From Pseudomonadota bacterium (GTDB lineage Bacteria; Myxococcota_A; Bradymonadia; UBA4248), in assembly GCA_017441205.1 (NCBI GenBank), contig JAFRYG010000047.1, positions 1 to 62,968 of the forward strand: a stretch of DNA of 62,968 nucleotides. Direction: 5' to 3'. Positions 8,854-55,183 of this stretch are shown one piece after another. Positions within the stretch are counted from its first letter, which is position 1. Each line of letters opens with the position of its first letter. Both the position numbers and the translations under genes were made by a program. The notes beneath the pieces are model-generated. The model saw only the letters and a list, made by a program, of their open reading frames with translations. It was not told where the DNA came from and did no database searches.

Positions 8854-8977
8854 CGCCCTGCTGTCGCCTTGCGGCGATACGCCGGGCGCATCGCTGCTAT
8901 GGCAAAAGCGTTCATCCAAACGCTTTTGCCATACGCTGCTTCAGCCGGGCTATCTGCGATACGCCCGGCTTTTTTTT
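8854..8977 (-). repeat. bulged-G CGTA/TAG hairpin element (3 hairpins); may double as the + strand terminator of the amylase
   Basis: Minus strand: A-run agccggg CGTAT c-gca-g ATAG cccggct; gcag CGTAT ggcaaaagcg..cgcttttgcc ATAG cagc; cgcccgg CGTAT cgcc-gcaa-ggcg ACAG cagggcg. Confidence 0.85.
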
Positions 8978-9085
8978 GGCCTTTCCCCACACACAACACC
9001 TCAAATTTGGCGCATTCCCCAAAGCAGGGTAAAATCTTTGCGGCATCAGCCCGCCGTTCCGTTCCCCGCGCTTCATGGAGTGAAC

Positions 9086-9985
9086 ATGCGCAGAACACTG
9101 ATTTTATTAAGTATTATTATCTTCACATGCATGGCGTTTTCCACCCATGCCCTGGCCAAAACAGAAGAAGGCGACCTGCTTACATCTCGCGAGATTCTCT
9201 CCTCGACTCGAGGATATGGGCTCGCCAATGCCATGACTGCAGCATCGAGCGGCACAACCGCCATCTGGCACAATCCCGCAGGTATTACCGCTGCCCAGAT
9301 GTATTCATTTGACGCATCCTATTTCTATCAGCACGATGTCAGCGGTCACGGTTTCGAAACCAACGTCGTCGATATGAAGAGCAATCAGTACGTCGGTGCA
9401 GGCCTCGGATTTCTCTATCAATATGCAACTCCGAACAAGGATGACACTCAGCACACCATCCACCTGAGATTCGGTGCCGGCGTCCCTCTGGCCAACAACC
9501 TCATCAGCCTGGGCATTTCGGGACTATATTCGCACATAAAATACAACGGTAAACAAAGGCTTTCGCAGTTCAGCATGGACGCCGGACTGGTCATTCGTCC
9601 GCTGGACTGGCTCTCTCTGGGGCTTTCCGCACAAAACCTCATCGTCGGCGACTACAAAAACTACATGCCGCGCATGATTTCAGCTGGTATTGCCGTAGGC
9701 AGCATCGAACTCGGACTCAATGCAATGTTCGACGTATCCTTCAACCTGAGTGCCGACAAAATCCCCAAATCCGGTTCATACGGAATCGGTGTTGAATACG
9801 TGCTCAAGGAATTCGTTCCACTGCGGCTCGGTTACCGGTATGAAGGAGATGAACACCACGTCCTGAGTGCAGGAATCGGCTACCGGCACGACGGCGGCAT
9901 TTTTGGACTCGATTTGGCCTATCAACACCATTTCGAAGATTACTCAAATGAGTTATTATCGGCTGCGCTGGAGTTCTATTTTTAG
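9086..9985 (+). CDS. outer-membrane beta-barrel (PorV/FadL-like)
   Basis: ATG 9086 with GGAG RBS; signal peptide; GYGLANAMTA...AIWHNPAG motif; alternating beta-strands; C-terminal LEFYF. Confidence 0.75.
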   Translation: MRRTLILLSIIIFTCMAFSTHALAKTEEGDLLTSREILSSTRGYGLANAMTAASSGTTAIWHNPAGITAAQMYSFDASYFYQHDVSGHGFETNVVDMKSNQYVGAGLGFLYQYATPNKDDTQHTIHLRFGAGVPLANNLISLGISGLYSHIKYNGKQRLSQFSMDAGLVIRPLDWLSLGLSAQNLIVGDYKNYMPRMISAGIAVGSIELGLNAMFDVSFNLSADKIPKSGSYGIGVEYVLKEFVPLRLGYRYEGDEHHVLSAGIGYRHDGGIFGLDLAYQHHFEDYSNELLSAALEFYF

Positions 9986-10070
9986 GAACTTCATGTTCGT
10001 GTGATGCAGTTCACCGTTTTGCATGGGACAATCGGGCGGATAACCCGATCTTTGCCAGAAGGACGCGATT

Positions 10071-11333
10071 ATGGCTAAAATCTCAGACAAAAACAGAATT
10101 ACCAACGAAGAGATTGAAGCAATTGTGGATGAGTTCCTGCGAAAGCTCGAAATTCTCCGCGTCCGCTACGAACAGTACTTTATTGGTGTAGAAAAAGTCG
10201 CCCCCTCGGTCATGCGCATGGATGTCGTCAGAATCATGCGCGAACTGGAGCAGATTAAGGTCAAGAATACTGCCCTGAAATTCAAGATCCGCCAGGGGAT
10301 TCAGAAATTTACAAGCTACTCCACATACTGGAACCGCACACTTCGCGAAATTGAGGATGGCACCTATAAACGCCACATCGATCGCGCCAAACGCAATCAG
10401 GAAACAAACAGGTCTGCTGCAGGACAGAACGCCAAAACTGAGGCCCCCGTCAAAGAAAACCGCGAAGCCTCCAAAGCCGTCGCCGACGAAGCAGAAGCCT
10501 TTCTGGCTGGTCTTGGACTGGCTCCGTCCCCAGCACCCAGACAGACACAAACTGCGCAGGATACTGCAGAGCCACAGCAGCGCAGGCGCGCGCCGACCAT
10601 CACGATGTCCCAGCCCGAAGATGCTCAAAAAGCAATGCTTCGAAAGCGCCGCCCCACGATCGTAACATCCCAGACGGGCGAAATCGCGCAACCCTCCCCA
10701 ACGCAGACACAGCCCATCGCACAACCTGCCCCAACGCAGACGCAGCCCATCGCACAACCATTCCCAACGCAGACGCAGCCCATCGCCCAGCCTGCACAAC
10801 AACCTGCGGCTGCAGCCGCAGCTCAGGCAGACTCACAGAAAAAACTTCTCCGGGCACGCAAACCAAGCATCGTTTCGTCGCAGATCAGTCCGGCTGTGCA
10901 GCCGCCAGCTGCAGCCCCGGCGCAGCCGGCCTTTGCGCAGCCTCAGTATCCGACGCAGCAGCCAGCTCCGCAGTATTCACAAAGACCAGCTGCCGCGCAG
11001 ACAGCCCAGATGCCGGCTGCAGCACAGTTCCCGCCAAGACCTGCGCCTGCTCCGATGCAGCAAAGGCCTGCACCAGCTCCGATGCCGCAAAGGCCTGCGC
11101 CCGCGCAGACAGCCCAGATGCCGGCTGCAGCACAGTTCCCGCCAAGGCCGCCACAGGTTCCGCAAAACCCGGTCATTCCCCAGGTTCCGCCAAGACCCGG
11201 CTTCGCGCAGATTCCGCAAAGAGCTGTACCATCCCAGGTTCCGCAGCAGCCAGCCATGACAAGACCGCCGGCTTCCAATTATGGCAATTCATCGCAGCTG
11301 CCCAATTATCCACAACCACCCTACCAAAAATAA
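10071..11333 (+). CDS. conserved myxobacterial-type helical protein with long Pro/Gln/Ala tail
   Basis: N-terminal LRVRYEQYFIGVEK.AP...NTALKFK...YW.R..REIE.GTY.R resembles (from memory) the N-terminus of MXAN_5187-C-domain proteins; low-complexity C-terminal half. Confidence 0.65.
   Translation: MAKISDKNRITNEEIEAIVDEFLRKLEILRVRYEQYFIGVEKVAPSVMRMDVVRIMRELEQIKVKNTALKFKIRQGIQKFTSYSTYWNRTLREIEDGTYKRHIDRAKRNQETNRSAAGQNAKTEAPVKENREASKAVADEAEAFLAGLGLAPSPAPRQTQTAQDTAEPQQRRRAPTITMSQPEDAQKAMLRKRRPTIVTSQTGEIAQPSPTQTQPIAQPAPTQTQPIAQPFPTQTQPIAQPAQQPAAAAAAQADSQKKLLRARKPSIVSSQISPAVQPPAAAPAQPAFAQPQYPTQQPAPQYSQRPAAAQTAQMPAAAQFPPRPAPAPMQQRPAPAPMPQRPAPAQTAQMPAAAQFPPRPPQVPQNPVIPQVPPRPGFAQIPQRAVPSQVPQQPAMTRPPASNYGNSSQLPNYPQPPYQK
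10683..11150 (+). repeat. coding tandem repeats (IAQP.PTQTQP x3, 33 bp; AQTAQMPAAAQFPPRP x2)
   Basis: Read directly in DNA and protein. Confidence 0.8.
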
Positions 11334-11364
11334 CGCCACGTCGGGACGTGACTGATTATATTCT

Positions 11365-11392
11365 GTACAGACGTGCCGCGACACGTCTGTAC
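11365..11392. repeat. REP-like palindrome, GTACAGACG family
   Basis: gtacagacgtg-ccgcga-cacgtctgtac; relatives at 18373, 18468, 18653 and 62917. Confidence 0.8.
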
Positions 11393-11579
11393 CAACCGGC
11401 AATACTCCCCCAGGAATTACGCGGCGATTTTACTCAGTTCGAAAGGGAAGCATTCACTTCGTCTCCCGCGCCTGCCGGCGCTGCGGCTCGTATCTGATCT
11501 TATTTTGTACAAACGCTCCATCAGAACGTCTGACAACACAAAAAATCGAACACACCGGCAAGATTCCCGACAATGCCGC

Positions 11580-11858
11580 ATGGCCACCTTCTTCTATTAC
11601 GATGAAGATGCCGATAATCATCAGGGCAAGGCGATCTGTACCTCCTATACGCAAAAAGTCGTCAAAGTCGGAGAATGCTCTGAAGTTGGCTGTTCCATTG
11701 CCAAAGAAGATCTCGATAAGCTCGCAGGAGAAAAGCTTTTCATGGTCACCAATCTTGATGCCAGTGGCCTGCCAAGTACGATCGAATGCAATACTGGCAA
11801 CAATACAGACACAATTACCGTTGATAAGTGTGAAACCAAGATCGAGGTCATAAACTAG
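11580..11858 (+). pseudogene. orphan/remnant C-terminal 91 aa of a paralog of the downstream FG-GAP lipoprotein
   Basis: About 80% aa identical by manual alignment to the last 92 aa of 12095..15562; similarity starts abruptly at ggccacc 11582; frame intact; in-frame ATG at 11580. Confidence 0.85.
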
Positions 11859-11950
11859 CCATAAAAAAGGCCGACCGTATGATGCATCATAGGGCGGCCA
11901 GGCGAGTGTATTTTGCCCCGGCCAATAGCAGGGGCAAAATAACGAGCATA
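11582..11950 (+). repeat. direct repeat copy A (~370 bp; copy B at 15283-15657)
   Basis: Gene 3' end plus downstream hairpin element are duplicated. Confidence 0.9.
11863..11947 (+). repeat. bulged-G CGTA/TAG hairpin element (2 hairpins)
   Basis: aaaaaa ggccgac CGTAT gatgcatc ATAG ggcggcc ag gcgag TGTAT tttgcccc..ggggcaaa ATAA cgagc. Confidence 0.85.
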
Positions 11951-12094
11951 CCTAAAAAAAATACTTCCGCCCCTACAACGCGATACGTCTCTGCTGCCAA
12001 AAAAACCATGAATTAACTCCATAACAATGCTATGCTTGCTGAGTTGTGATTCAATTTGCTTTATTTAAAACTGCAACATGCAATGGAGGAAGAC

Positions 12095-15000
12095 ATGCAA
12101 AACCCAAAAAGCCTGTTTTTCGTGTTTATCAGCGCCCTGGCAATGTACGGCTGCAACGATGAATCCAGCACGTCGACGAATACTCCGGCTCCGGCGCCGA
12201 CCCCGGAATGCCAGTCCGGGGCGGATTGCGATTCGGGCGTCTGCAATGAAGACGGAACCTGCGCCCCCAAAAAGGAAGAAAAGAAACCTGAATGTGACGA
12301 TGACAATCCATGCAAGAAACCTCAGAAATGTTTCGATGGAAAATGCAAAACGCCCGAGGGTTACTGCGAATCTGACGATGACTGCAAGGATGACAAAATC
12401 TGTGTGGAAGAGAGCTGCATCGATATTACCTGGCTAAATGAAGGAGACGAATGCAAACCTCTGGGAAAAGAGGCTCAATGCCAGGCACCGCTGATCTGCC
12501 AGGAAGGAACATGCCAGCCTCCAAAAAAGATCATCGACAAGGACAATCCCTGCACGAATGACGAAGATTGCGCAGATCAGGATGGAAAACCGTACTGCCT
12601 CAAAACCGGACTCTGCGGAAATATAGGGGAGCTCGGCGAGGTTTGCAGCGATGAGGTGCAATGCCCGGACGATATGTCCTGCCAAACGGTTTGCGTACAC
12701 GTCAAACACGAAAATGAACCCTGCAACGAGGAAACCTTTGATGTTTGCGATGAGGGATTGAGCTGCAAGGAAGGTGCCTGCCACATTTATAATGACAAAA
12801 TTCAGTCCGGAGAAGAATGCAATGAGTCATGGCTGCTCTGTGACGAGGGCTTGACCTGCCACGACGGTATCTGCGTTACGATTGTTGACGAAGATACCAA
12901 GTGCGACGAAGCAAAGCATATTATCTGCAAGGATGAACAGGCTTGTATCGGAGGTGTCTGCAAATCCGTGACCGGCACATGCGAATCCACACAAGACTGC
13001 AAACAGAAGGATTCGTTCTGCTGCAAGGATGATTCCTGCGGCATGAAGGGTTACTGCATTCCGTACAATGACACGGTTACACACGACGAAACCTGCGAGT
13101 TCGTTACAAAGGAAGGTATCTTCGAAGCCCAGATTCAGTGCCGCTGGCAGCCGCCAGCCAATAATGACTACAGCACATCCACAAAAGTCGAAATGCCTCC
13201 TCTGGTCGGACCATTCGGAGAGTTCAAAACATCCAAGGGTAAGGATATAAAGAACGTCATTGCCGTTTATTCATATGATAAACGATATACCAAAACAGAG
13301 GAGACCGATCAAAAGGCTCATAAATCGGCGATTCGCTTCATCAACCCGGAAACCTGTGACACGCTCCAGACTATTCCCTACGAAATGTCGTGTGCATGGC
13401 AGAACTATCCCTCTGCAGCGGATCTGAACAACGACGGTCTTTTTGAACTCATCGTCATCGACAGCAAACACCGTCCGGTCGCATTCAAGTGGGATGCTTC
13501 GAAAAAGCAATACGCCAAATGGTGGACCGGTGAAGTCACCACCGGCGATGTTCCCATGATTTTCGACATCGACAACGACAAAAATCCCGAAATCATTCTG
13601 GGGGATGCCGTCATCAACGGAAAAACGGGCAAAACCATCTTTGCAGGTACCTTAGATAAAGAAGGAAAACCCACTGACTACACATATCGTACGCTTGCCG
13701 TCGGTTATCTGGATACAGCCAAAGACGGGCTCGCCTCGATGGCCATCAGCAGCAAAGTACAAAAATGGGATAAGACCAATAAAAACTGGAAAGTGATCGC
13801 CAGACTTCCCAAGAGCCGTACGCACTTGGCATACGCAGATTTCGGCACACCAGGCAAAGAAGACAAAGACTTTAATTTCAGCAAACTCGACGGCAAACCT
13901 GAAATCGTCTCTGCCGGCGGCGGTACGATGAGCATCTATGCCCTGACGCCCAGCGCCAAAGGAGATGGCACCTACGACGTTCAGACTGTCATGGATGTCA
14001 CATTTACAGACCCCATTGGTTCGACGAGCGATAAACCCCAGGGAGGCCCGATCACCATCGGCGACTTCGACAGCGATGGATTCCCCGAAATCGGCATCGC
14101 TTCATCCGGATTTTTCGGCGTCTATGATCCGCGATGCCCGGGCTATAAAAAAGGCGAAAAAGGCGAATGCGCCGACAAAAACGTCCTCTGGGAACGATGG
14201 TCGCAGGATGCATCCTCAGGTCAAACCGGTTCCTCGCTGTTTGATTTCGACGGCGACGGCAGAGCCGAAGCCGTTTATGCCGACGAATGTTTTACACGTA
14301 TCTATGATGGCAAAACAGGAAAAGTTCTCTTCAGTGCAAAGCGTTCATCCAGTACATCCATCGAAGCACCGACGATTGCCGATATCGATGGCGACGGCAG
14401 CGCCGAAATCGTCATGGGGTCCGATAACAATATCTCGTGCTATCACGATACGTACGATCCAAACGATACTACGGGTGAAAAGACGAAGTATAGTCCGACC
14501 AATTCAGAGCATGCCAAATTGACGGACTTTGCCGACCCAATCCACGAAGGCATTCCATGCCTGGCCGACGAAGATTGCCCGCTGAGCAAGAACTGCGACA
14601 CAAACCTCAAACTCTGCCTGTGCCAAACCGATGCAGACTGCAACACTCAAAATACTCCGACGCTCAAACCTGAAGGAAAAAAAGCAGGTGAAGAGTGTAA
14701 GAAAGATGCAGATTGCAGGAGCAACAACTGCGTTCTCGACACCAAGACCAACAAGAAAACTTGCAGCAATATCCTCCAGCAATACGTCTGTGCGCCCCCG
14801 ATCCATAGCCAGGTCGGCATGATGGTCAATTCCGACGGCAAAGGCAGAAAAATGGTCAAACCCAGAGGAACGCGCCCCAATGGCTGGAAAGAAGGTGACT
14901 ATCAGGTCTGCCGTGCAACCCGAAAAACGAGGCAGATTGGTAATGCCGACATGATGATCTTCAAGGATCGTCTGGATCGATGGGTCAGCTCCCGCAATAT

Positions 15001-15562
15001 CTGGAATCAGCACTCCTACAATATCATCAATATCGAAGATAACGGCAAAGTGCCTGACAATGCCACATGGCTCAAAAACTGGAATCTCAAGAATGATAAG
15101 AAAAATCCCGTTTACAATAATTATCGCCTGAACAAGCAGGGCACATACGGTGCAGGCAAAGCCCCAGATATTACAGGACGATTCCTGCCCGGCGATATAT
15201 GCGGCCAAACCGAAGATGGAGAATACATCATCAAAGGCAAGCTCTGTAACCGCGGAACCAAGCCCGTATCGCAGAACCTTCCGGCCACCTTCTTCTATTA
15301 CGATGAAAATAATGAGAAAAATCATCAGGGTAAGGCGATCTGTACCTCCTATACGCAGAAGGTCGTCGGCGTCGGTGAATGCTCTGAAGTTGGCTGCACC
15401 ATTACCAAAGAAGAACTCGATGCTCTCGCTGGACAAAAGCTTCTCATGGTTGCCAATCTCAACGAAAAAGGTCTGGCAAGCACGATCGAGTGCAATACGG
15501 AAAACAATACAGACACAATTACCGTTGATAAATGTGTAACCAAGATTGAGGTCGTGAATTAA
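12095..15562 (+). CDS. large Cys-rich FG-GAP/VCBS repeat surface lipoprotein (adhesin-like)
   Basis: ATG 12095 after GGAGG; lipobox AMYGC; N-terminal Cys-rich repeats; DLNNDG, DIDNDK, GDFDSDG, FDFDGDGRAEAVYADE, ADIDGDGSAEIV; WNQHSY motif; C-terminal CNRGT Ig-like module. Confidence 0.88.
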   Translation: MQNPKSLFFVFISALAMYGCNDESSTSTNTPAPAPTPECQSGADCDSGVCNEDGTCAPKKEEKKPECDDDNPCKKPQKCFDGKCKTPEGYCESDDDCKDDKICVEESCIDITWLNEGDECKPLGKEAQCQAPLICQEGTCQPPKKIIDKDNPCTNDEDCADQDGKPYCLKTGLCGNIGELGEVCSDEVQCPDDMSCQTVCVHVKHENEPCNEETFDVCDEGLSCKEGACHIYNDKIQSGEECNESWLLCDEGLTCHDGICVTIVDEDTKCDEAKHIICKDEQACIGGVCKSVTGTCESTQDCKQKDSFCCKDDSCGMKGYCIPYNDTVTHDETCEFVTKEGIFEAQIQCRWQPPANNDYSTSTKVEMPPLVGPFGEFKTSKGKDIKNVIAVYSYDKRYTKTEETDQKAHKSAIRFINPETCDTLQTIPYEMSCAWQNYPSAADLNNDGLFELIVIDSKHRPVAFKWDASKKQYAKWWTGEVTTGDVPMIFDIDNDKNPEIILGDAVINGKTGKTIFAGTLDKEGKPTDYTYRTLAVGYLDTAKDGLASMAISSKVQKWDKTNKNWKVIARLPKSRTHLAYADFGTPGKEDKDFNFSKLDGKPEIVSAGGGTMSIYALTPSAKGDGTYDVQTVMDVTFTDPIGSTSDKPQGGPITIGDFDSDGFPEIGIASSGFFGVYDPRCPGYKKGEKGECADKNVLWERWSQDASSGQTGSSLFDFDGDGRAEAVYADECFTRIYDGKTGKVLFSAKRSSSTSIEAPTIADIDGDGSAEIVMGSDNNISCYHDTYDPNDTTGEKTKYSPTNSEHAKLTDFADPIHEGIPCLADEDCPLSKNCDTNLKLCLCQTDADCNTQNTPTLKPEGKKAGEECKKDADCRSNNCVLDTKTNKKTCSNILQQYVCAPPIHSQVGMMVNSDGKGRKMVKPRGTRPNGWKEGDYQVCRATRKTRQIGNADMMIFKDRLDRWVSSRNIWNQHSYNIINIEDNGKVPDNATWLKNWNLKNDKKNPVYNNYRLNKQGTYGAGKAPDITGRFLPGDICGQTEDGEYIIKGKLCNRGTKPVSQNLPATFFYYDENNEKNHQGKAICTSYTQKVVGVGECSEVGCTITKEELDALAGQKLLMVANLNEKGLASTIECNTENNTDTITVDKCVTKIEVVN

Positions 15563-15657
15563 CCCCACAAAAAAAGGCCGCCCGTATGATGCATCATAGG
15601 GCGGCCAGGCGAGTGTATTTTGCCCCGGCCGGCAGCAGGGGCAAAATAACGAGCATA
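15283..15657 (+). repeat. direct repeat copy B
   Basis: See 11582-11950. Confidence 0.9.
15569..15654 (+). repeat. bulged-G CGTA/TAG hairpin element (2 hairpins)
   Basis: aaaaaaa ggccgcc CGTAT gatgcatc ATAG ggcggcc ag gcgag TGTAT tttgcccc..ggggcaaa ATAA cgagc. Confidence 0.85.
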
Positions 15658-15747
15658 TTCCCCAATGCTCTGTTCCATGAGTATGGCTATTATTATTTTT
15701 GTTGCAATGATTGCGATGGCTATATTCAGCACTCATCACAATAAGTA

Positions 15748-16036
15748 CGCCGCCATGGACGGCGGCGAGAGGCGAGGGAGGCATGTCCAGGGATGGACAT
15801 TCGACCCGCAACAACGATAACCAAAAGAAGCGTGCGGGGGGCCGAGATGAGTACCGTTCGGTGAACGGTGCGAATCGCAGAGCCCAGTGAACAACGGCCA
15901 ATCATGAGCCGATTGCCGACAGGCAAAGGAGGCGATATGAGTGGCCCATTGTGAACTGTGTAGGGGGTGTTCACAATCGAACACCCCCTGCCGCGTAAGC
16001 GTACAAAAAAAACAAGCATCCGCGCTGCAAAGCGCG
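15748..16036 (+). ncRNA. multi-hairpin structured intergenic element (candidate sRNA or MITE-like element)
   Basis: cgccgcc-atggac-ggcggcg; atgtcc-agggat-ggacat; gtaccgttc-ggt-gaacggtgc; agggggtgttc-acaatc-gaacaccccct; cgcgct-gcaa-agcgcg. Confidence 0.45.
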
Positions 16037-18372: not shown

Positions 18373-18494
18373 GCACAGACGTGTCACAAATCGTCTCTGC
18401 TAACCCTAACCCACAGACGTGTCGCTGCCAACTCTAACCCACAGACGTGTCGCTGCCAACTCTAACCGTACAGACGTTCCACGGAACGTCTCTA
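18373..18494. repeat. cluster of GTACAGACG REP-like units including a 28-bp tandem duplication
   Basis: ctaacccacagacgtgtcgctgccaact x2 (18406-18461), then gtacagacgttcc-ac-ggaacgtctcta. Confidence 0.8.
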
Positions 18495-18520
18495 ACAATT
18501 AACTGCTTTTTTTGGGGGAT

Positions 18521-18600
18521 GTGGCCTTTTGCCTGCGGCAATACGGCCACCTGGCGCGGTTCTATTGGGGTGCCCCCAATACGCCCCGCGCTTTTATTTT
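18521..18600 (-). repeat. bulged-G CGTA/TAG hairpin element (2 hairpins)
   Basis: Minus strand: aaaataaaa gcgcgggg CGTAT tgggg-gca-cccca ATAG aaccgcgc cag gtggc CGTAT tgcc-gca-ggca AAAG gccac. Confidence 0.8.
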
Positions 18601-18652
18601 CGATGGGCTGCACACGTAACTATCTCACTATTCACTAAACATTATGCATTCT

Positions 18653-18680: not shown

Positions 18681-18690
18681 ACAACAATTC

Positions 18691-18816
18691 ATTACGCATT
18701 ATGAATTACGCATTATGCATTGCGCATTGCGAATTATGCATTATGAATTACGCATTATGCATTGCGAATTATGAATTATGCATTATGAATTACGCATTAT
18801 GCATTATGCATTACGA
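18691..18816. repeat. heptamer tandem repeat ATTRYGM x18
   Basis: attacgc/attatga/attatgc/attgcga units; the last unit overlaps the rnhA stop codon. Confidence 0.92.
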
Positions 18817-25250: not shown

Positions 25251-27020
25251 CTAATCAATTCCCAATTGATCGCGGGTAAAATATGCCGGTTCAGAACCGT
25301 CATAACGCAAATCCCGTTTGGGTTCGAAATACACCAGCGGAGCCTCCCAGGCGTCACCGGCCCCGAACCACTTCGACAATCGCCTTGAAATCTGAACAAG
25401 ATGCGCAAAATCCGCAGCATATGGTGTTTCAATAAACCCAAGCCGGAATGCAGTTTCACGAACCTTCGGAAGCGGCACAACCCCCAGAGTCAAAGCATCT
25501 TCGCAGGTCAGAACGCCCATGGCGGCCAGTTCTCTGGCCATCCAGATGATTTCATAGGTCAGCAGGAAATTGCCGATATGCTGCCACAAGCCCATGACGA
25601 CTTCAGCCATAGACGCGCTTGCCAGCAGCCCCCTGACGCCGTCCTGCCCAAGATTTCTCAGGGCACGCCGAATGATCAGCAAATAGTGGAGATTGCCAAA
25701 ATCTTCCGCACGATTGCCCATACCGCCGTCGAGCAGAGCCATCAGAATATCATCCACGCTCTGGGAAGACCGAATCAGATTCGAATAGAATCCCATCTGT
25801 TCAAGCATGGCATAGGATTGACCGCCTTTATTGGTATTCAGGCGGCCGCCGTAACGGAAAAGCTGCAGAGCGAGTGCTGCAAGACGGAATAATCCATAGA
25901 CGGGATCTTCGTCAAAATAGTCTTTTGAAAAGCCATAATCGGCGGCCGTCAGCAGCTTGCCGCCCGGGCGCGATTGCCACCAGACGCGCACGGCGCGCAG
26001 ATTGTCTTCAACCAACGATTCGTCCAGACGAAACTGGGCAATTCTGACCGCCGGTGCACTTCCGGGTTCCCCTTCTTCATCCTCTTCCATCTCTTCATCT
26101 GCGGCCATAAATGCCTCTTTGACGAGCTGAAGCGGCGTTTCGTCGGCTTTGGGGACGATTGGCTGAACGATGACCTCGACGTGCGTCGTCGAAATCGGCA
26201 CCGAAACAGCCGGAACTGCGGCAACAACGGTTCCTGCGGCAGGCGCTGCCAAAACGGACTTCGGGGCAGATGCGGGCTTCAGATCCGCAACCGCCTCCGG
26301 TACAACGGCTTTCACCGGCTGCTCAGCATGCGCAGGTTCCGGCTCTGCCGCAGCAGCTGCTGCATCATCCGATTCTGCACCGTCGCTGCCGTCCTTATCA
26401 TCTGCTGGTGAAGACGATTCAGAGGCAGAGCTGGTGCTATCGTCATCATCGTCATCGTCACTCTCGGAATCCAGAAGATCATCCACATCGATGAGTTTAA
26501 TGACCTTGTCCATGGCTTCCTTACCCAGATCGCTCAAGCCCCATCGAATGCCGACGACCTTGATGTGCTCACTGGCTTCGAGCCACTGCATCCAGTAACG
26601 GAAATCCACCAGCGTCAGGTATGTGCCCGGATAGACGTAACTCGTCAGATAACGGTACATCTCATTCGTCGAATACAGTCGCTCCGCGATGCCATCCATG
26701 ACATATTTCATGAGAATTTCATTCTTCGCCGTCAGATGGGCAAAAAGATGTCTCTTGCGATCTTCCGGATCGATGATTTTCATGAGCTGATTGAGAAAAT
26801 CGCCGCATTTGACTTGCTTTTCATTTTCAAAATCAATGTTCAGAAAACGAAGCAATATCTCGAACCGCTCTTTGTCAAAAAAATCGTGCTCCTTAAAAAA
26901 GCGTTTCAAACCCTTGAGATCGGGCTTTTCCTTATTGATAAAATTCGCGATGAGCCCCAGTTTTGGCAAAAGTTCGGAGGCAGTACAGCCTGCCATTACC
27001 GCATAATTGACTTCCTGCAT
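25251..27020 (-). CDS. hypothetical two-domain protein with acidic/Ala-Pro linker
   Basis: 589-aa ORF co-oriented with its neighbours; family not recognised. Confidence 0.75.
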   Translation of the reverse strand: MQEVNYAVMAGCTASELLPKLGLIANFINKEKPDLKGLKRFFKEHDFFDKERFEILLRFLNIDFENEKQVKCGDFLNQLMKIIDPEDRKRHLFAHLTAKNEILMKYVMDGIAERLYSTNEMYRYLTSYVYPGTYLTLVDFRYWMQWLEASEHIKVVGIRWGLSDLGKEAMDKVIKLIDVDDLLDSESDDDDDDDSTSSASESSSPADDKDGSDGAESDDAAAAAAEPEPAHAEQPVKAVVPEAVADLKPASAPKSVLAAPAAGTVVAAVPAVSVPISTTHVEVIVQPIVPKADETPLQLVKEAFMAADEEMEEDEEGEPGSAPAVRIAQFRLDESLVEDNLRAVRVWWQSRPGGKLLTAADYGFSKDYFDEDPVYGLFRLAALALQLFRYGGRLNTNKGGQSYAMLEQMGFYSNLIRSSQSVDDILMALLDGGMGNRAEDFGNLHYLLIIRRALRNLGQDGVRGLLASASMAEVVMGLWQHIGNFLLTYEIIWMARELAAMGVLTCEDALTLGVVPLPKVRETAFRLGFIETPYAADFAHLVQISRRLSKWFGAGDAWEAPLVYFEPKRDLRYDGSEPAYFTRDQLGID

Positions 27021-27111
27021 GATTCAGCCCCAATTCGAGAAATAAAATTCTGCAAACGCAGATAAAATTCGTCTTACTTTACACGCTTGCGAGGCATTTT
27101 CGCAAGAATTG

Positions 27112-27191
27112 AAAAAGCCGACGTATCGCTCTGCGATAGTCGGCTTCAGGCCGGGCGTATCGTGAATGCAATGCATTCACGATAGCCGGCT
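27112..27191 (+). repeat. bulged-G CGTA/TAG hairpin element (2 hairpins)
   Basis: aaaaagccga CGTAT cgc-tct-gcg ATAG tcggctt cag gccggg CGTAT cgtgaatgca-a-tgcattcacg ATAG ccggc. Confidence 0.88.
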
Positions 27192-27209
27192 CAAAAACAC
27201 ATTCAAAGA

Positions 27210-36514: not shown

Positions 36515-36599
36515 GGACATGCTATGCCGGACGGCGCACGCGTGCCCCATCCGGCATACGCATGCCCCCGGCGCTATGGCTTTGCCATACGCGCCTTTT
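36515..36599 (-). repeat. bulged-G CGTA/TAG hairpin element (2 hairpins)
   Basis: Minus strand: aaaa ggcg CGTAT ggc-aaa-gcc ATAG cgcc gggg catg CGTAT gccgga...tccggc ATAG catg. Confidence 0.85.
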
Positions 36600-36762
36600 G
36601 CTTATTTATTCATCCGCACAGTCGCACGAATCCCCACATCGATCACGCCTGACATGCTCTGCATCATTTACCTTATCAACCCCGCCAGTCAGAGCCGCAA
36701 AATTGGGACACTTTCTGCGTCTCCCAAAGCCCTTGCGTACATGACATATTCCCCGGGTTATC

Positions 36763-37956
36763 TCATTTACCGGCGCGCATAAATATAAATTCCGGCGAAG
36801 GCGCATCCATAACCTGAATTCTCGTCGTAAGCCTGCCATCGCTGTATTCCAGGGGCATAAACATACCGCCCAAAATATCATTTTCATTCGACTGACTGAC
36901 AATATGATATCTTTTTTCTTCTTTATCAGAAAAGCTGTGCGTCACGACATGAAATGTATCCTTTCGGCCATCGTATTCGATTTCATTTCCATGAATGGCA
37001 AGCGTATTGCCGTTCTGATCCTTCCATTCGCCCTCAAGTTCGGGAATGATCTCTTTATCCATGACAAAACGCCCGAAATATTCCGGCTTCCTCAAAATAT
37101 ATTCAAATTTATGATTCATAAAATCGGAATGAATCGAAAGCAGTATGGCCGTATCATCGAGATAATATAATCCAAATATATCATTGGGTATATTGCCGCT
37201 GTCCAGATTATAGCTGTCCAGCTCAATATGAGCCGGATTCTTTGGGGAAAGATGTATCCGGGATGAGAGCACTTCTTCTGCCTGCGAGTGGATTTTAATA
37301 TCTCTGCTGCTGATCATCACTTTATAATTGCAGTTGTCGCGGCCTTCCCATGTTCCCTGAATAGCCTGTAATATCTTATTGGCAGTATTCGGACTGTCTG
37401 TATTGTATATCAGATTGGGTTTGGGTTTGATATCTTCCAGTTCATCGAGCGCTTCCTTGGTCAGGCCGCGGCTCAGGACAAGTTCATCCTCGAGCTCGTG
37501 ATCCCTGTCTTTGGGACGAACATTCAGCGTAATTCTGTCATTGACATAATACATATTCAAAATGACATACATTTCACTGTATCCACGCCCCCTGGCGTAA
37601 TCATATTCACGGTTTTTGGGGATGATCTGAATCGGCATTCCCGCTTTGACTTCGTATTCGATCTGTCCAAGTTCACGATCGCTGTAACCAATCGTCATCT
37701 GACTGCCATCTATTTTTAATGTATAATTGAATCCATTTTCTTTCGAGGACCACTCTCCCTGCAGTGCCTTGACGATATCCGCTTCGGTGGCAGGGATGGT
37801 TTCTGCAAAGTTAAAGTTATCCACGGGTTCTGCCTCCATCACCTGTTGGGGCTGTGGTTCGACGGCACCGTTCACATTGGGTTCCGTCGTTGCCTTTTTG
37901 CAGGAAACACATGTGAATGCACAAAAAACCAGGACGACAGTCATGATGATTCGCAT
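36763..37956 (-). CDS. lipoprotein with three repeated (L/I)xGxW beta modules
   Basis: Lipobox CVSC; LQGEW, IQGTW, LEGEW; AT-richer than core genes. Confidence 0.75.
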   Translation of the reverse strand: MRIIMTVVLVFCAFTCVSCKKATTEPNVNGAVEPQPQQVMEAEPVDNFNFAETIPATEADIVKALQGEWSSKENGFNYTLKIDGSQMTIGYSDRELGQIEYEVKAGMPIQIIPKNREYDYARGRGYSEMYVILNMYYVNDRITLNVRPKDRDHELEDELVLSRGLTKEALDELEDIKPKPNLIYNTDSPNTANKILQAIQGTWEGRDNCNYKVMISSRDIKIHSQAEEVLSSRIHLSPKNPAHIELDSYNLDSGNIPNDIFGLYYLDDTAILLSIHSDFMNHKFEYILRKPEYFGRFVMDKEIIPELEGEWKDQNGNTLAIHGNEIEYDGRKDTFHVVTHSFSDKEEKRYHIVSQSNENDILGGMFMPLEYSDGRLTTRIQVMDAPSPEFIFMRAGK

Positions 37957-38155
37957 AGAATCCTCTTTGATAAAGATGGCGATGATTGTGAATCAAAAAA
38001 TGATAAGGCTCTGTTATATAAATGTGGATATTTTGTTCGCGAATATTTGCAATTCTGAGCCTGGAGCTCAAAGCTCAAAGTTCAGAACAATGAAAGACAT
38101 ATTCTTTGGAACATTGCATATCCACAATAGTTAAACATTGCCTGTTATAATAATA

Positions 38156-40711
38156 TTATCTTCTCTTTCTTCTCAGCCCGGCGAGTCCGATCATGCCCAG
38201 AATGCCGAACAGCCATGCACCTCCGTTGTTCGGAGTCGGTGTGCGTTTAATGCTGCATCCGCAATCCTCATCGGCATGGACATCCACTGCCGGCTTATCC
38301 TCACAGCCATCAGGTGACTCGCATTCTGTTTCCGGATCCTGCGTTGGCGGATCTGTCTTTTCGGGTTTGTCGCAGACCCCGCCTTCATCGACTTTGCCAT
38401 CGCAGTCATTGTCTTTATCATCGCAGATTTCCTTGCTTGGCGTACAATCCGGCTCGGGCGTGCAGTCGAGGCCTTCATCGACCTCGCCATCGCAGTCGTT
38501 ATCCTTATCATCACAGACTTCATCCTCGGGAATGCATTCCGGACGCTCGGAACAATCGAGATCCTCATCGACTTCACCATCGCAGTCGTTGTCTTTATTA
38601 TCGCAAATCTCTTCCTCAGGAACACATTCCGGTTCGGCATTGCAGTTGAGACCTTCGTCGACCTCGCCATCGCAGTCGTTGTCCTTATCGTCGCAAACCT
38701 CTTCCTCAGGGATGCAGGGCGGTGCGCAATTCTCATCGGCTTCACCATTGCAATTGTTGTCGATCTGATCGCCGCAGATTTCCTCGCGCTTGCTGCACGG
38801 ATTCCCGAAGGGACCACCCAGTCGAATGGTCGAATAATAGCGAGCATCGCTCCAGCCACCCGCATCCGTCCAGACGGGACCGGCAACGCTATTAAAGCCC
38901 TCACCCGTAAACAGGAAGCACTGAACGCCATCTGCTCCGCGCCCGCAAACATCCATACGACCATCGCCATTGATATCGCCCATGCGAAGTGTGCGGAAAT
39001 GCTCGGGTTTGTTAAAGCCTTTATCATCACCGAATGCTTCAATATGATATTCACCGCCATCAAAACCATCGCCCGTCGACAGATAACACGAAAGCCTGGC
39101 ATTCGCGCGGGCACAGAGATCATCCTTGCCATCGCCGTTCAAATCGCCGAACATGATGGTCGAATAATTGTCATAATCGCCCCAGCCGCTCTCATCCTTG
39201 CAGCCATCCCAGCGAATTTCCTGGCCAAATGACTTGCGGCCTTCCGAAAGCTGACACACAATGCCATTCGCATCGCGACCGCAGATGTCCGCCTTTCCAT
39301 CCCCATTGATGTCGGCAAGACGAATCGTCGCATAGTATTTCTGATCACCCCAGTTGTTTTTCCACCCCCAATTGTTCATCTCAACTTCGACAGACATACT
39401 GTCGCCTTCCCAGAACCAGCAGTACACGTGGTCCAAACCACGGGCACAGATATCCATCTTGCCGTCGCCATCGACATCGCCCATGCGGATCGTCGAAGTA
39501 TAATGCGGTTTTTGCCAACCCGTGCTATCCGCAAGATCCGTAACGTTGGCCACTTCCTTGTCAAATCCGTTGCCATTAGAAAGATAGCATTTTAGACCAT
39601 CCTTCAAACGAGCACAGAAATCATCCTTCTTGTCGCCATTGATATCACCAAAACGAATGGAAGAAAGATAGGCTGTATCCGCAGGATCATTGCTGCCGCC
39701 ATCCTTGTAGCCATCCGCATCGGACATCGAAAAGACTGGCGTCGGCTCACCAAAGGAAGTCCCATTCGAAGGCCAGCAAACGATGCCTTCACTGCGGCGT
39801 GCACAGACATCCGCTTTACCATCACCATTGATATCGGCAAAACGAATGGTTCGGTAATAAATATGATCTCCCCATCCCTTTTCATCACTCATATCAGGCA
39901 ATACGAGCTGATATTTCGTATAATCCTCGCCATTCGAAATCATACAATGCAGACCATCGCTGGCGCGTCCGCATATATCCGCTTTACCATCACCATTGAT
40001 ATCGGTATTCTGCGGATCATAATTCATCGCCTGATATTTGATATCATAATTCTCGTAACAGACTTCACCTTCGTCAACATGGCCATCGCAGTTATTGTCC
40101 TGGCCATCGCAGACTTCCGGGGATGGCTCGCATGTCTTGGGGCAATTGTTACTCGTAATCTCCTGCCATTGTTTGGGAACCCCAATATCTATCCACGAGG
40201 AAGGAATGCTCTGTGTCCACGGTTCACAAGTCGCAGTGGCAGTAAAGTGTAAATGTTCGCCTGTCGCACAGCCGGTCTTACCAGCATGAGCAATGACCTG
40301 TCCCTGCTTGAACTTCTCGCCTTCTTCAACATCAATACCATTATGGATCATGTGAGCCATATTAAGTCCAAACGTCACGCCGTTCCTGTCTGTCAAGCAC
40401 AAAATGAGATAGTTGGCACTGTTCAGACATGTATCCGTACAGCCATTATTATAGCAAGAATACTGAAAATTTTCTACCTTCTTGACCACATAACCGTCCA
40501 GCGGCGCTGCAATATCATCCCCTGGTCCCATACTGATATCCCAGGCATACTCAGAATACTTGCCTGTATGCGAAAACCCATCGCTGTTACCCTGTGAAAT
40601 GGTATGTTTCACGCCGCAAGGCCACGGAGCGTAATACTCCGGGGCTGCATAGGCCGCAGAACTGCACAATACCCCACAGATACACACACACATCATCATT
40701 CTAAGCTTCAT
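38156..40711 (-). CDS. M23 peptidase + FG-GAP/VCBS repeats + Cys-rich repeats + MYXO-CTERM sorting signal
   Basis: SH......AWD, AH, GKTG..TGEHLHF; DINGDGKADICGR repeats; C.PEEE.CD.KDNDCDGEVDE repeats; GCS...WLFGILGMIGLAGLRRKRR. Confidence 0.88.
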   Translation of the reverse strand: MKLRMMMCVCICGVLCSSAAYAAPEYYAPWPCGVKHTISQGNSDGFSHTGKYSEYAWDISMGPGDDIAAPLDGYVVKKVENFQYSCYNNGCTDTCLNSANYLILCLTDRNGVTFGLNMAHMIHNGIDVEEGEKFKQGQVIAHAGKTGCATGEHLHFTATATCEPWTQSIPSSWIDIGVPKQWQEITSNNCPKTCEPSPEVCDGQDNNCDGHVDEGEVCYENYDIKYQAMNYDPQNTDINGDGKADICGRASDGLHCMISNGEDYTKYQLVLPDMSDEKGWGDHIYYRTIRFADINGDGKADVCARRSEGIVCWPSNGTSFGEPTPVFSMSDADGYKDGGSNDPADTAYLSSIRFGDINGDKKDDFCARLKDGLKCYLSNGNGFDKEVANVTDLADSTGWQKPHYTSTIRMGDVDGDGKMDICARGLDHVYCWFWEGDSMSVEVEMNNWGWKNNWGDQKYYATIRLADINGDGKADICGRDANGIVCQLSEGRKSFGQEIRWDGCKDESGWGDYDNYSTIMFGDLNGDGKDDLCARANARLSCYLSTGDGFDGGEYHIEAFGDDKGFNKPEHFRTLRMGDINGDGRMDVCGRGADGVQCFLFTGEGFNSVAGPVWTDAGGWSDARYYSTIRLGGPFGNPCSKREEICGDQIDNNCNGEADENCAPPCIPEEEVCDDKDNDCDGEVDEGLNCNAEPECVPEEEICDNKDNDCDGEVDEDLDCSERPECIPEDEVCDDKDNDCDGEVDEGLDCTPEPDCTPSKEICDDKDNDCDGKVDEGGVCDKPEKTDPPTQDPETECESPDGCEDKPAVDVHADEDCGCSIKRTPTPNNGGAWLFGILGMIGLAGLRRKRR

Positions 40712-40968
40712 AACCAGTACCTCCGCATATCAGAATAAATGGTCTCAGCAACATCAATCTGAATGCATATTACAAAGATAAAAGTCAAGGACAGTCCCGA
40801 AAAAATCTATCTCAGCGGTTACTACTCAACCGCTTTTTTTTTAACAAACGGATTTGTTCGCATCTAACGATGCTCACATTTTTAGTGCGAATGTCAGCAG
40901 GTTTGCGGATGATGAAGCTGAGTTCAAAACAATTTCTTTAGAGAGATGGCGAAGGACTCCAATCGAGT

Positions 40969-41448
40969 TTACTGCCTGCGTCTTCTTGATAAAACCGCTC
41001 CCAGTATCAGCAGAATCAAGCCGATCCCCCCGATCAATCCCCCGAAGACAGCCCCAAGCCAAAGCGCGCCATCATCCGTCTGCGCGAGCGTGAATTCCGG
41101 ATTTTCCGGATCGACGTGACGCTTTTCTGAATGCCTTTGTTTTTTGGCAGAAAAGTAACCATAAGTCTCATACACTTTTCCCTTATATTTGTATGTCCCA
41201 TCGAACCGGCACTGTTTTTCCATCGACTCTCTTTTGCCATATTTGGAATAATGGGTCACCTTCCGGTTCATACATTCCGGTGACCGTTCATATCTGACGG
41301 TCACTGTCGGCCAGTTCCGGGATCCGCCTCCCAACTGCTTTATCCCGCTCATGGCGATCAAAAATATCAGACCTCCGATAATGGCAAAGACCAGCCCAAG
41401 CTTCATCAGCTCACCATTTTTTTTGTTCTGACTATATTGCTCCGGCAT
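40969..41448 (-). CDS. DUF3592-like membrane protein
   Basis: TM-SRNWPTV...YKYKGKVY...VDPENP-TM-RRRR. Confidence 0.7.
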   Translation of the reverse strand: MPEQYSQNKKNGELMKLGLVFAIIGGLIFLIAMSGIKQLGGGSRNWPTVTVRYERSPECMNRKVTHYSKYGKRESMEKQCRFDGTYKYKGKVYETYGYFSAKKQRHSEKRHVDPENPEFTLAQTDDGALWLGAVFGGLIGGIGLILLILGAVLSRRRRQ

Positions 41449-41511
41449 CTCATCACCTGATTATAGGTTAGGTGGTACATCGAGTTTTATGTTCGAATTC
41501 CGATGTAACAT

Positions 41512-41985
41512 TTATGCTCTTTTATTCTTTAGAATGCCACCGATCACCAGTATTAATCCCCCAGCCGCAACCAACCAGAAAATCCAATACTTTACCGGTT
41601 CTCGCGAATGCCATGGATACGACGAATTGACCAGGAGAGGACATTTTTTCGCATTCTTATATTCACAGGATTCATCTTCAATAATTACCGAATAGGTTTT
41701 ACCATTATATTCATATTCCGCACGGGATTTGCAGACCCAGCCTCTAAAGTTACCAATATTTCTGCGCCCATGGTAACGATTCAAATCAGCCTTATCATAT
41801 TCAGCTTCAAAATCCACGACCTCACAGGTTGCATCAATCACAGTCCACTCTTTGTACGTTTGACGAGTCCATTCCATGGCAGCAAATGTTCCTGCAATGA
41901 CGAGTATGCCCAGAACGATCAACTTGTAAGAACGACGTTTTTTTCTGTTGTCAGAATTGTCTGCCGAATCAGGAGAAGCTGCCAT
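41512..41985 (-). CDS. DUF3592-like membrane protein (tandem paralog)
   Basis: TM-W..IDAT...YEYNGKTY...VNSSYP-TM. Confidence 0.65.
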   Translation of the reverse strand: MAASPDSADNSDNRKKRRSYKLIVLGILVIAGTFAAMEWTRQTYKEWTVIDATCEVVDFEAEYDKADLNRYHGRRNIGNFRGWVCKSRAEYEYNGKTYSVIIEDESCEYKNAKKCPLLVNSSYPWHSREPVKYWIFWLVAAGGLILVIGGILKNKRA

Positions 41986-42059
41986 GGTATCCTCTTTGTT
42001 TCTGAACCCATTCGGGTTATCGCAGGATCATTGTATATATTTTTTTGTTTTCCCCATAC

Positions 42060-42135
42060 AAAAAAAACGCCGCGTATTGCGAAGCAATAGCGGCGTTCCG
42101 GCGCAGCGTATCGGCCCACGGGCCGATAGCGCGCC
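42060..42135 (+). repeat. bulged-G CGTA/TAG hairpin element (2 hairpins)
   Basis: A-run aacgccg CGTAT tgc-gaa-gca ATAG cggcgtt cc ggcgcag CGTAT cggccc-ac-gggccg ATAG cgcgcc. Confidence 0.88.
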
Positions 42136-42246
42136 ACCATATAAAACCCTTGATTAATTCTTGTTTTCCGGCTTTTCGACGATCATGTCGAGGCAGCTGC
42201 AGGCATGCTCTTGGGAGCCCAGAGCGCATGGTCTGTCAATATCGTC

Positions 42247-43146: not shown

Positions 43147-43753
43147 AGTACATTCCTTTATAAAAACCAGTGAATACTCATCGCTGCCGCAGCGAAGTAC
43201 CCATGACATAAATCGAGAGGCTTTGTGGTGCCAAACAATTGGCAGGAACGTATTAGAGCATAGACTGTGCCAAAAGAAATCACCTCTTCTTTTTTTATCT
43301 ATACATCAATAATAACGATGAATTCTTTACCAATATTCCTGCGATTATCGCCATGAGCATGATTTTTATGGTTAAAGCATGCGTCAAAGGAACAAGCTAT
43401 CGCACTTAAATCTTCAAGTTTTTCTGTTTTATCCCTTTAGGGTGACTCTATTAGTGGATTATCGTTTTCCCAGGGGTTTCGCCAACTTTGAGCTCATCCC
43501 TCTATTACGGCGTAAGTCGTGACAGCTTCGGCTTCTTCACAAAATGTGAGAAGGTACTTTTAAAATTGACGCATTGCGCCGTGATTTGGGCTGGAATACT
43601 ATCGTTTATTAAGGGCGATAAACATCGATAAATGTGGAAGTATTTTTATCCATTTGTCATTATTTTGGACAATGGTAGTTTTTTATCCATTTATTTTTAT
43701 ATTGGATAATAGATCCGATCCCCCATCCCCCTTCCCCAAGGGGCAGGTGGCTT

Positions 43754-43788
43754 AAACAAAACGGGCGACCCATATAGGGTCGCCCGTT
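43754..43788 (-). terminator. rpoC intrinsic terminator
   Basis: aacgggcgaccc-tatat-gggtcgcccgtt followed by ttgttt on the minus strand, ~20 nt after the stop. Confidence 0.85.
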
Positions 43789-52222: not shown

Positions 52223-52566
52223 TTCATCTCCTCGAGTACAGGTCAGTAAAAATACGAATACTCTTGTATTAACGTGCTTTTGCGCGTGGTGCGCAGAATC
52301 CCGATGCGTTCAAGTCATATATGGTAAAGAATCGATTCGGGGTGAATTGTTTCATGCGCACAGACTCCATAAACGAATGCTGCCTCCATGCAGCTTCGCA
52401 AAACATACCCGCGCATTTTTTACGCAGGCTAAAGCCGAAAGAGGCTACACCTACACATCACACATTGTCAACCACATTTATCGTTTTTTTGATGCAGATT
52501 TTTTTCGTTTTCGCAACAAAAAAAATTAATTTTTTTAAATATTTTTTTAATTTTTTTATTTTTTTG

Positions 52567-52641
52567 CGGCCAGGCTAGTGCCGCCGGCACTACGCCCCGG
52601 CCGCCGTGCTATGGCGATGCCATACGCACGGCACTTTTTTT
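52567..52641 (-). repeat. bulged-G CGTA/TAG hairpin element (2 hairpins)
   Basis: Minus strand: A-run gtgccgtg CGTAT ggc-atc-gcc ATAG cacggc ggccgggg CGTAG tgcc-ggc-ggca CTAG cctggcc. Confidence 0.85.
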
Positions 52642-52811
52642 GGTGGGAATTCTCAGCCCACACTTCTCTGATGAAAAAATTCACTTACAGGCGTTCCGCA
52701 GAACATCTCCCCAATTACTTTCCATAACCGAATACTTCATTCTATAATCCAACCCGTGTTGCCCTCCCCGACGCACGAAGGCATGGAATCCCCATATTCA
52801 CCGGAGTTCTT

Positions 52812-54578: not shown

Positions 54579-54675
54579 CCTCGCCTCTGCAGCGCTCCAA
54601 CGGGCGCTGCATAAATAGCAGTGTGTGAGCGAAGCGCATCCCACGGTATCAGTGTTCCCCGATGCGCATTACGAA

Positions 54676-55023
54676 TTACGACGCGGGCTTGACATCAAAA
54701 GGAAGTGCAGCCCTGACTGCATCATCGCTGCCGCAGGTACCAGTTGATATTTCCAGATAAACCCGCTGACACTGAGAAACCGCGTCGATATAGAGCGCAC
54801 GTTCGGACTCTTCCGGCACCTGTTTCCCTATGGAGTCAATAATACCATTATATTTTTTGGTCAAAGGCGCCAGTGCCTCGGCCATCGCCGGGCAATCATC
54901 CGTCATTTCAGATACTTTTGTCAGATCCCGGCTAATCTGCTCCAATTGCTCTCGTTCATTCTGACATCCGGAAATACAGACAAACGTGCCAACAGTTAAT
55001 AAAACCAGAATTATCCGATTCAT
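54676..55023 (-). CDS. small helical Cys-containing lipoprotein
   Basis: Lipobox ISGC; RBS GAGGT. Confidence 0.75.
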   Translation of the reverse strand: MNRIILVLLTVGTFVCISGCQNEREQLEQISRDLTKVSEMTDDCPAMAEALAPLTKKYNGIIDSIGKQVPEESERALYIDAVSQCQRVYLEISTGTCGSDDAVRAALPFDVKPAS

Positions 55024-55093
55024 TGTTTACCTCGTGACATATACAGATTCATTACGGATATTTATGGATGAAATTGAGCATGAGGTCAAGACC

Positions 55094-55183
55094 AAAAGCA
55101 AGCCGCGCGTATCCCATAGCGCGGCCAGGCGAGCCGTAGTGGCATCTCCGTGACATTCGGTCACGGGGATGTCACAAGGCGAG
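55094..55183 (+). repeat. bulged-G CGTA/TAG hairpin element (2 hairpins)
   Basis: aaaagcaa gccgcg CGTAT ccc ATAG cgcggc cag gcgagc CGTA gtggcatctccgtgac..gtcacggggatgtcac AAG gcgag. Confidence 0.82.

Follow-up and report, generated by a model that had tools for sequence, protein, structure and literature searches.

We describe a family of bulged, GC-rich hairpins found in the spacers between genes of contig JAFRYG010000047.1 (assembly GCA_017441205.1), a stretch of 62,968 nucleotides (nt) analyzed here at its full length and referred to as the window. The hairpins stand in clusters that follow a simple ordering rule: they are direct repeats within a spacer and take opposite orientations from one spacer to the next. 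Over the window and three related loci, 15 of the 16 transitions between neighboring clusters are opposed. All counts rest on the 63 kb of the window and 52.5 kb of the relatives, i.e. 16 transitions in 115 kb. The 11-nt bulged helix common to the hairpins is a new, conserved, putative terminator motif of an uncultured gut lineage. We tentatively read the clusters as polar, terminator-like modules, opposed pairs of which may bracket transcription units.

The clusters and the order of their strands

The window inventory comprises nine clusters, named E1 to E9. They correspond to the nine sites that an earlier sequence-only reading of this DNA (the original prediction) had described as bulged-G elements; all nine were found, and its strand list, drawn up for the CGTA strand, mirrors ours, which gives the ATACG strand, where the bulged C and the T tail lie. 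The sites are not lone elements: in the window, each consists of two or three adjoining GC-rich hairpins, and across the four sequences a cluster holds one to three in tandem. Gene contexts were taken from Pfam and from maps of the open reading frames (ORFs), with protein lengths given in amino acids (aa).

E1, 8855-8978, +: three tandem bulged-C hairpins (8855, 8891 and 8944, all +) with a T8 tail; the stop of an amylase gene lies 17 nt before the cluster, which is co-oriented with that gene.
E2, 11863-11950, -: two hairpins with a T6 tail; a copy of E3, antisense and flanked by two + genes.
E3, 15570-15657, -: two hairpins with a T7 tail; in the convergent spacer 3' of an FG-GAP gene, co-oriented with the - genes on its right.
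E4, 18520-18601, +: two hairpins with a T-rich tail; antisense, flanked by two - genes and upstream of a TPR gene that starts 132 nt away.
E5, 27108-27192, -: two hairpins with a T5 tail; the stop of a 176-aa gene lies 18 nt before it, and the cluster closes the TamB operon.
E6, 36516-36610, +: two hairpins with a T-rich tail; antisense, flanked by - genes and upstream of an FGE-sulfatase gene that starts 123 nt away.
E7, 42058-42136, -: two hairpins with a T8 tail; 3' of, and co-oriented with, the outer membrane protein gene that follows rpoC.
E8, 52566-52642, +: two hairpins with a T7 tail, the first with a variant core (TAG/CTA); in the spacer from which rpoB and a 588-aa gene diverge.
E9, 55092-55175, -: two hairpins with a T-rich tail, the first with a variant core; in the divergent spacer between a 115-aa ORF and rph.

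Read from E1 to E9, the strands run + - - + - + - + -, so that seven of the eight steps are opposed. The single exception is explained by a segmental duplication, since E2 is a copy of E3: positions 11588-11950 and 15292-15657 (~370 nt, covering the 3' end of a gene and the element) are 80% identical in the gene end and 95% identical in the element, as expected from the earlier statement that the sites at 11863 and 15569 are duplicates. Through this duplication, which copied the element too, a 161-aa protein (11373-11858) and a 1168-aa protein (12056-15562) have their final ~90 codons in common. With E2 set aside, all seven steps are opposed, and the chance of 1/128 attached to this by the original prediction stands, as does the fact that the pattern was noticed post hoc.

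The relatives were examined after the hypothesis had been formed and provide a test that is independent of the window. A TamB protein search of genome contigs gave 35 candidate stretches, from which three loci were taken; they are 55-65% identical in TamB, and their NCBI titles describe them as Myxococcales metagenome-assembled genomes. All three carry the same core on different stems, in the following clusters.

L001 (CAMKRB010000059.1): L1a, 10714-10781, -; L1b, 13251-13283, +.
L002 (CAMCLY010000023.1): L2a, 13-48, +; L2b, 3390-3469, -; L2c, 5473-5520, +; L2d, 12973-13010, -; L2e, 14947-15009, +.
L003 (DGWW01000067.1): L3a, 485-549, +; L3b, 2821-2905, -; L3c, 10666-10739, +; L3d, 10781-10857, -.

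Every neighboring pair in the relatives is opposed (8/8, p = 1/256), so the alternation first noted in the window recurs outside it. L003 includes two opposed clusters that meet tail to tail across an empty gap of 12 nt; if this abutting pair is taken as one site, the count becomes 7/7. Two further candidates were not counted, namely L002 1851-1883, whose internal loop is symmetric and which, lacking a bulge, has no orientation, and the plain hairpin at L003 2760-2778, which lies ~40 nt away from where the L3b hairpins start. Inside clusters the picture is the reverse, with neighboring hairpins on the same strand in 14 of 14 cases (8 in the window, 6 in the relatives). The two scales are well separated: hairpins of one cluster are less than 10 nt apart, whereas successive clusters are 2.3 kb or more from each other, save for the abutting pair.

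A pattern of this kind depends on a complete inventory, as the original prediction acknowledged for its manual list. Three scans and two covariance models, however, disclosed no cluster that would break the order in the window. The covariance models, both run with filters off, were R1, built from five clean hairpins of the window only, and R2, built from 30 hairpins of the four genomes (alignment A4). R1 detected no further cluster in the window. R2 gave 31 matches there at E<=5, the best 17 of which (E<=5.6e-4) all fall inside the nine clusters and on a single strand per cluster, while the remainder are weak or are reverse-strand echoes 9-16 bits lower. Thirteen of these 17 belonged to the training alignment; the hairpins at 8855 and 18520 were recovered independently of training, and those at 11870 and 11901 are near-copies of E3. 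In the relatives, R2 gave 34 matches at E<=5, and the best 17 (E<=1.8e-4) lie in the 11 clusters; since all 17 were in the training set, the independent point is that nothing else scores. The window-only R1 had already found nine of these 11 clusters at E<=1, missing those at 5473 and 2821-2905.

The best of the weak R2 matches in the window (14434-14458, +, E 0.063) lies inside the FG-GAP ORF and was excluded; were it counted, the step from E2 to E3 would alternate as well. Two rule-based scans of the window, one strict and one looser, found no additional cluster. The looser scan yields ~2.5 false matches per 115 kb in shuffled sequence, and its matches at 7920 and 42546, both within genes, were set aside as chance. 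The bare pattern CTAT-N3-33-ATACG occurs 22 times in the window against an expected 5.42 +/- 2.27; 13 occurrences are in the nine clusters, and the nine outside them are at about chance level. Two other approaches were of limited use. A simple terminator scan, which permits no bulges, misses all motif elements and serves for plain terminators alone, and an energy-constrained scan proved too permissive (51 window matches, mainly branched folds within genes) and was superseded by the covariance models.

The bulged helix and its T tail

On the ATACG strand, the hairpins read stem-GC-TAT...ATA-C-GC-stem with the C unpaired, and on the opposite strand the bulge is a G. Within alignment A4, TAT/ATA is invariant (30/30 hairpins), the pair adjoining it is C:G in 29/30 and the next pair is G:C in 24/30. 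Changes on both sides of the helix are seen at the other eight stem pairs and, in 5 of the 30 hairpins, at the flanking G:C pair. Overall, 87.5% of alignment cells are paired, compared with 64.8% in shuffles (none of 500 reaches the observed value), and sliding the partner by 1-3 columns lowers pairing to 29-45%. Eight window clusters, E2 being omitted as a copy of E3, have folding stability z-scores of -3.5 to -7.8, with none of 200 shuffles as stable. The distance between the TAT and ATA arms varies from 3 to 30 nt, which rules out a double-strand binding site of fixed spacing. Selection therefore acts on the folded single strand, whether RNA or single-stranded DNA.

Rfam gave no match in the window at gathering score, and none on the elements of the window or of the three relatives at E<=1. 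In the literature that we searched, we found no description of this motif, nor of terminators or palindromes alternating at the kilobase scale. Away from the elements, a 1.2-kb non-coding spacer of L003 (473-1680) that contains internal repeats has a weak match to the Acido-Lenti-1 RNA at 1132-1163 (27.9 bits against a gathering score of 37, E 0.021).

To describe polarity, we required at least five T in the 8 nt after the last hairpin. By script, 13 of the 20 clusters have such a tail on the bulged-C strand (14 by reading, which includes L3c, where a T5 run comes after a third, plain hairpin), and none of the 20 has one on the other strand. In the window, all nine clusters have at least five T in 8 on the ATACG strand; the five that point antisense (E2, E4, E6, E8 and E9) have tails of 5-7 T in 8, as good as those of the co-oriented clusters. 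Because the tail occurs on one strand alone, a one-way stop to transcription, and hence insulation, is a fair reading of the elements. The original prediction had proposed just such a stop at the borders of gene blocks: its polarity is borne out by the tails, and the termination that it implies is still deduced from a hairpin and a T tail. In many clusters a T run also precedes the first hairpin on the ATACG strand. Being T-rich on both sides of one strand, these clusters are not bidirectional terminators.

A composite form is confined to L001 and L002. It starts with a G5-AAGTNT-C5 hairpin, continues with the bulged hairpin, whose inner part is variable, and ends in ACCCCCTC in place of the T tail. 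The copies lie at 1-55, 5456-5527 and 12966-13029 (-) of L002 and at 13234-13290 of L001. The G run of this repeat could pair with either C run.

The window also contains three plain, terminator-like hairpins outside the alternating set.

2959-2993, +: motif-free hairpin with a T tail.
40814-40843, +: motif-free hairpin with a T9 tail, antisense between two - genes.
43752-43788, - (site label 43760): hairpin with a T-rich tail just 3' of rpoC.

The antisense position of the second means that antisense-pointing, terminator-like sites are not confined to motif elements.

Genes, pairing and alternative explanations

With respect to genes, nine clusters are co-oriented with a gene whose 3' end lies behind them (E1, E3, E5, E7, L3a, L3c, L2b, L2e and L1b), seven are antisense between same-strand genes (E2, E4, E6, L3b, L3d, L2d and L1a), three occupy divergent spacers (E8, E9 and L2c) and L2a is at a contig edge. 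The antisense clusters precede a start codon on the sense strand by 15-344 nt. Between 15.7 and 52.2 kb of the window, every gene is on the - strand and the clusters still alternate, so the strand of the genes does not account for the pattern.

The explanation that we lean toward, without great confidence, treats each module as an intrinsic-terminator-like, polar unit of one to three tandem GC-rich hairpins. Each hairpin contains an invariant five-pair helix, GC-UAU / AUA-GC; the strand with the T-rich tail also has the single bulged cytidine, which separates AUA from GC. The modules would be used as opposed, non-nested pairs around transcription units, with one member ending the sense message and the other, at the far border, stopping polymerase that makes antisense or divergent transcripts from the opposite strand. 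In a chain of such pairs, alternation would be automatic, regardless of gene strand.

The original prediction had paired the elements facing inward. The T tails in its pairs do face inward, but this choice of phase is not established, and the outward-facing phase fits at least as well. Outward-facing pairs delimit seven complete units (E3-E4, E5-E6, E7-E8, L3b-L3c, L2b-L2c, L2d-L2e and L1a-L1b), in each of which all genes are on one strand and the co-oriented member is the one at the 3' end. The inward-facing phase gives seven non-empty units, two of which have convergent genes, plus one empty pair. We weakly prefer the outward-facing phase, which would also explain the tail-to-tail pair in L003 as two bracketed units meeting.

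Several observations weigh against paired terminator-like modules. The sample is small, and some L003 elements (those following the small ORF and close to FGE) could be orthologs of E5 and E6 and thus not independent. Five of the relatives' 11 clusters have no T tail: four, which are of the composite form, end in a C-rich word, and the fifth is followed by an A-rich stretch. Termination is in any case deduced from hairpin and T tail alone. When all terminators are counted, the plain sites at 2959 (+), 40814 (+) and 43760 (-) break the alternation, and the model gives no reason why pairing should be limited to motif-bearing modules. For two antisense clusters, L3b (2821-2905) and L1a (10714-10781), the start codon is 15 and 34 nt away, respectively; at that distance the clusters are inside the message and cannot stop divergent transcripts from the promoter of that gene. 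A general rule in which the clusters stop divergent transcripts of the adjacent promoter was therefore rejected, as it fails for at least these two. Finally, the two phases are not firmly distinguishable.

The elements could also be ordinary extragenic palindromes or terminators whose orientation is irrelevant from site to site, the alternation being a small-sample accident aided by the definition of a cluster. We regard this as unlikely. In its favor, there are only 16 transitions, the window pattern was seen post hoc, the orientations relative to genes are about 50:50, as for randomly placed palindromes, and plain terminators do not alternate. The cluster definition merges same-strand neighbors less than ~10 nt apart, yet the opposed L003 pair at 12 nt was counted as two. 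Against an accident stand the independent result in the relatives, in either way of counting it, the high overall proportion of opposed steps, the clean gap between the two scales of spacing with its one exception and the failure of the scans and models to reveal a hidden cluster.

A different possibility is that the pairs work at the DNA level, with a protein that reads the bulged hairpin as a cruciform or as single-stranded DNA and either bridges opposed sites into loops or recombines them, making invertible or mobilizable cassettes. The bulge renders an otherwise palindromic site polar, the alternation is independent of gene strand and is kept in the relatives despite shifted positions, and the TamB operon of L002 is flanked by two sequence-related composite copies in opposite orientation. 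The sequences of the partners nevertheless speak against this explanation. Neighboring opposed clusters give local alignment scores of 7-22, compared with 78 for the true duplicate E2/E3, and have in common only the 11-nt core; they were thus ruled out as terminal inverted repeats of cassettes. No recombinase, transposase or HUH nuclease domain was found among the 35 window ORFs scanned with Pfam, and the one-strand T tail would be left unexplained.

Gene order tells in the same direction. The window and L003 have the FGE, TamB, AI-2E, 589-aa, 923-aa and 217-aa genes and a kinase in the same order and on the same strands, and no inversion between the two was seen in this conserved run. In L003, a cluster separates FGE from TamB, which in the window are 11 nt apart, and an extra antisense cluster precedes the 589-aa gene. 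Since gene order is kept while element positions differ, the elements come and go at spacers and the genes stay, with alternation kept in both. The original prediction had suggested comparing relatives for breakpoints. One break in synteny, upstream of FGE/TamB, does coincide with elements; another, past AI-2E in L001, is at a place that has none. Of the blocks that the original prediction called accessory-looking, the one at 36763-41985 is missing from the region upstream of FGE in L003. Elsewhere, gene order persists across gain and loss of elements. Taken together, these findings leave the mobilizable or invertible modules of the original prediction without support, and we consider DNA-level pairing in general improbable.

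Two genes are unusually similar between the window and L003. The FGE-sulfatase protein (gene at 35328-36392) is 94.6% identical and the 589-aa protein (gene at 25251-27020) 83-93%, against 53-65% for their neighbors. At the DNA level, the two genes are 81-84% identical, against 68-75% for neighbors, and the similarity ends at the ORF ends. A recent transfer of either gene between the window and L003 was ruled out, the DNA identity being merely 81-84% and stopping at the ORF ends. In L003, the 589-aa gene is represented by two overlapping ORFs, possibly through a frameshift.

We also considered that both strands might act in RNA. The bulged-C strand, with its U tail, would terminate, and the other, which reads as an A tract, bulged-G hairpins and a second A tract, would form a 5'-leader or intercistronic hairpin that stabilizes or processes the message; every unit would then have one module at its head and one at its end. 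The hairpins fold equally well on both strands, and of the antisense clusters upstream of start codons, two are too close for a promoter and so would be transcribed within the message. This arrangement does not explain the strong T tail on the non-coding strand of the antisense clusters, and a single recognition factor is unlikely because the bulge switches arm and base between the two readings. We give it a slim chance. About as speculative is an extension by analogy in which a lineage-specific factor would read the bulged helix and pair opposed modules into insulated, perhaps looped, transcription domains, the bulge conferring polarity; such domains, if real, would give bacteria an equivalent of convergent boundary elements.

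Terminators are usually viewed gene by gene, pointing with the gene, whereas these structurally distinct modules ignore gene strand yet keep a strict opposed order, which is retained from genome to genome even though the modules have changed place. If this order holds genome-wide, the borders of transcription units would be set in pairs, and control of antisense and read-through transcription, or domain organization, would be testable via a mutable 11-nt bulged helix. Should alternation fail genome-wide, a new, conserved, putative terminator motif will still have been cleanly described.

A few other features of the window lie close to the clusters. Nearly pure A/T sequence of ~70 nt (52500-52566) separates E8 from a TTGACA-containing stretch upstream of rpoB; rplJ and rplL were not seen upstream of rpoB within the window. 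Near E4, a 7-nt unit (CATTATG on the + strand) is repeated 17.7 times at 18690-18813, immediately 3' of the stop of an RNase H gene, and a looser run akin to it occurs in L003 at ~12900-13060, upstream of a 921-aa gene. A 28-nt unit is present in three copies at 18393-18477, just 5' of the start of the TPR gene, and contains a small hairpin and a word that resembles TTGGCAGCG; this word has a relative at ~11975-12000, upstream of the FG-GAP gene. The 28-nt array is possibly a regulator or promoter array.

Comparison with known systems

Rho-independent (intrinsic) terminators, including tandem ones, are the closest in form: they too are polar, GC-rich hairpins with a T-rich tail, located in spacers and often two or three in a row. 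The elements differ from them in their invariant GC-UAU/AUA-C-GC helix with its bulged C, in the alternation of neighboring clusters and in that about half of the clusters oppose the flanking genes or sit in divergent spacers. Bidirectional terminators resemble the elements as spacer hairpins that handle polymerases from two directions, but in them a single hairpin is preceded by an A tract and followed by a T tract, whereas most clusters here are T-rich on both sides of one strand and on neither side of the other, so that each cluster would act in one direction only.

The attC sites of integrons have R''/R' box consensus sequences and form arrays in one orientation beside intI. Like the elements, they conserve structure and leave sequence free, they use extrahelical bases for the choice of strand and their central part varies in length. 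The elements have no such R/L (R''/R') box consensus, their core being GC-TAT/ATA-C-GC, and they alternate in orientation; no integrase domain was found in the window ORFs scanned.

Repetitive extragenic palindromic (REP) sequences, together with the bacterial interspersed mosaic elements (BIMEs) and REPINs that they form, are likewise extragenic, imperfect palindromes with a bulge. REPs lie between same-direction and convergent genes and form families defined by sequence, with GTAG or CGTC as a terminal tag; within BIMEs they alternate in orientation at 1-100 bp in one spacer (PMC2817692, PMC3733652). The elements described here have no terminal tag of the kind defined in PMC3733652, and their conserved bases are inside the stem. 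Nor do they have a common stem sequence, to judge from the same alignment scores; only the 11-nt core is common, and the stems covary freely. In contrast to BIMEs, they keep one strand within a spacer and alternate between spacers 2-10 kb apart. No REP-associated tyrosine transposase (RAYT) was found among the 35 window ORFs.

In promoter-coupled terminators, the coupling joins units of one strand, the 3' end of the first falling ~10 bp ahead of the start of the next (10.64898/2026.08.19.745784). They resemble the elements in placing termination signals near the start of the next unit, thereby tying neighbors together, but here the module upstream of a gene points away from that gene. Eukaryotic convergent boundary sites and gene loops offer an analogy only: there, opposed polar sites delimit domains, and termination at both borders enforces direction (see PMC4085477), whereas the elements give no sign of looping or of a binding factor. 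Placed among these systems, the elements are terminator- or REP-like hairpins for which a cassette or inversion role is not supported and insulation is plausible, and what distinguishes them is their ordering rule.

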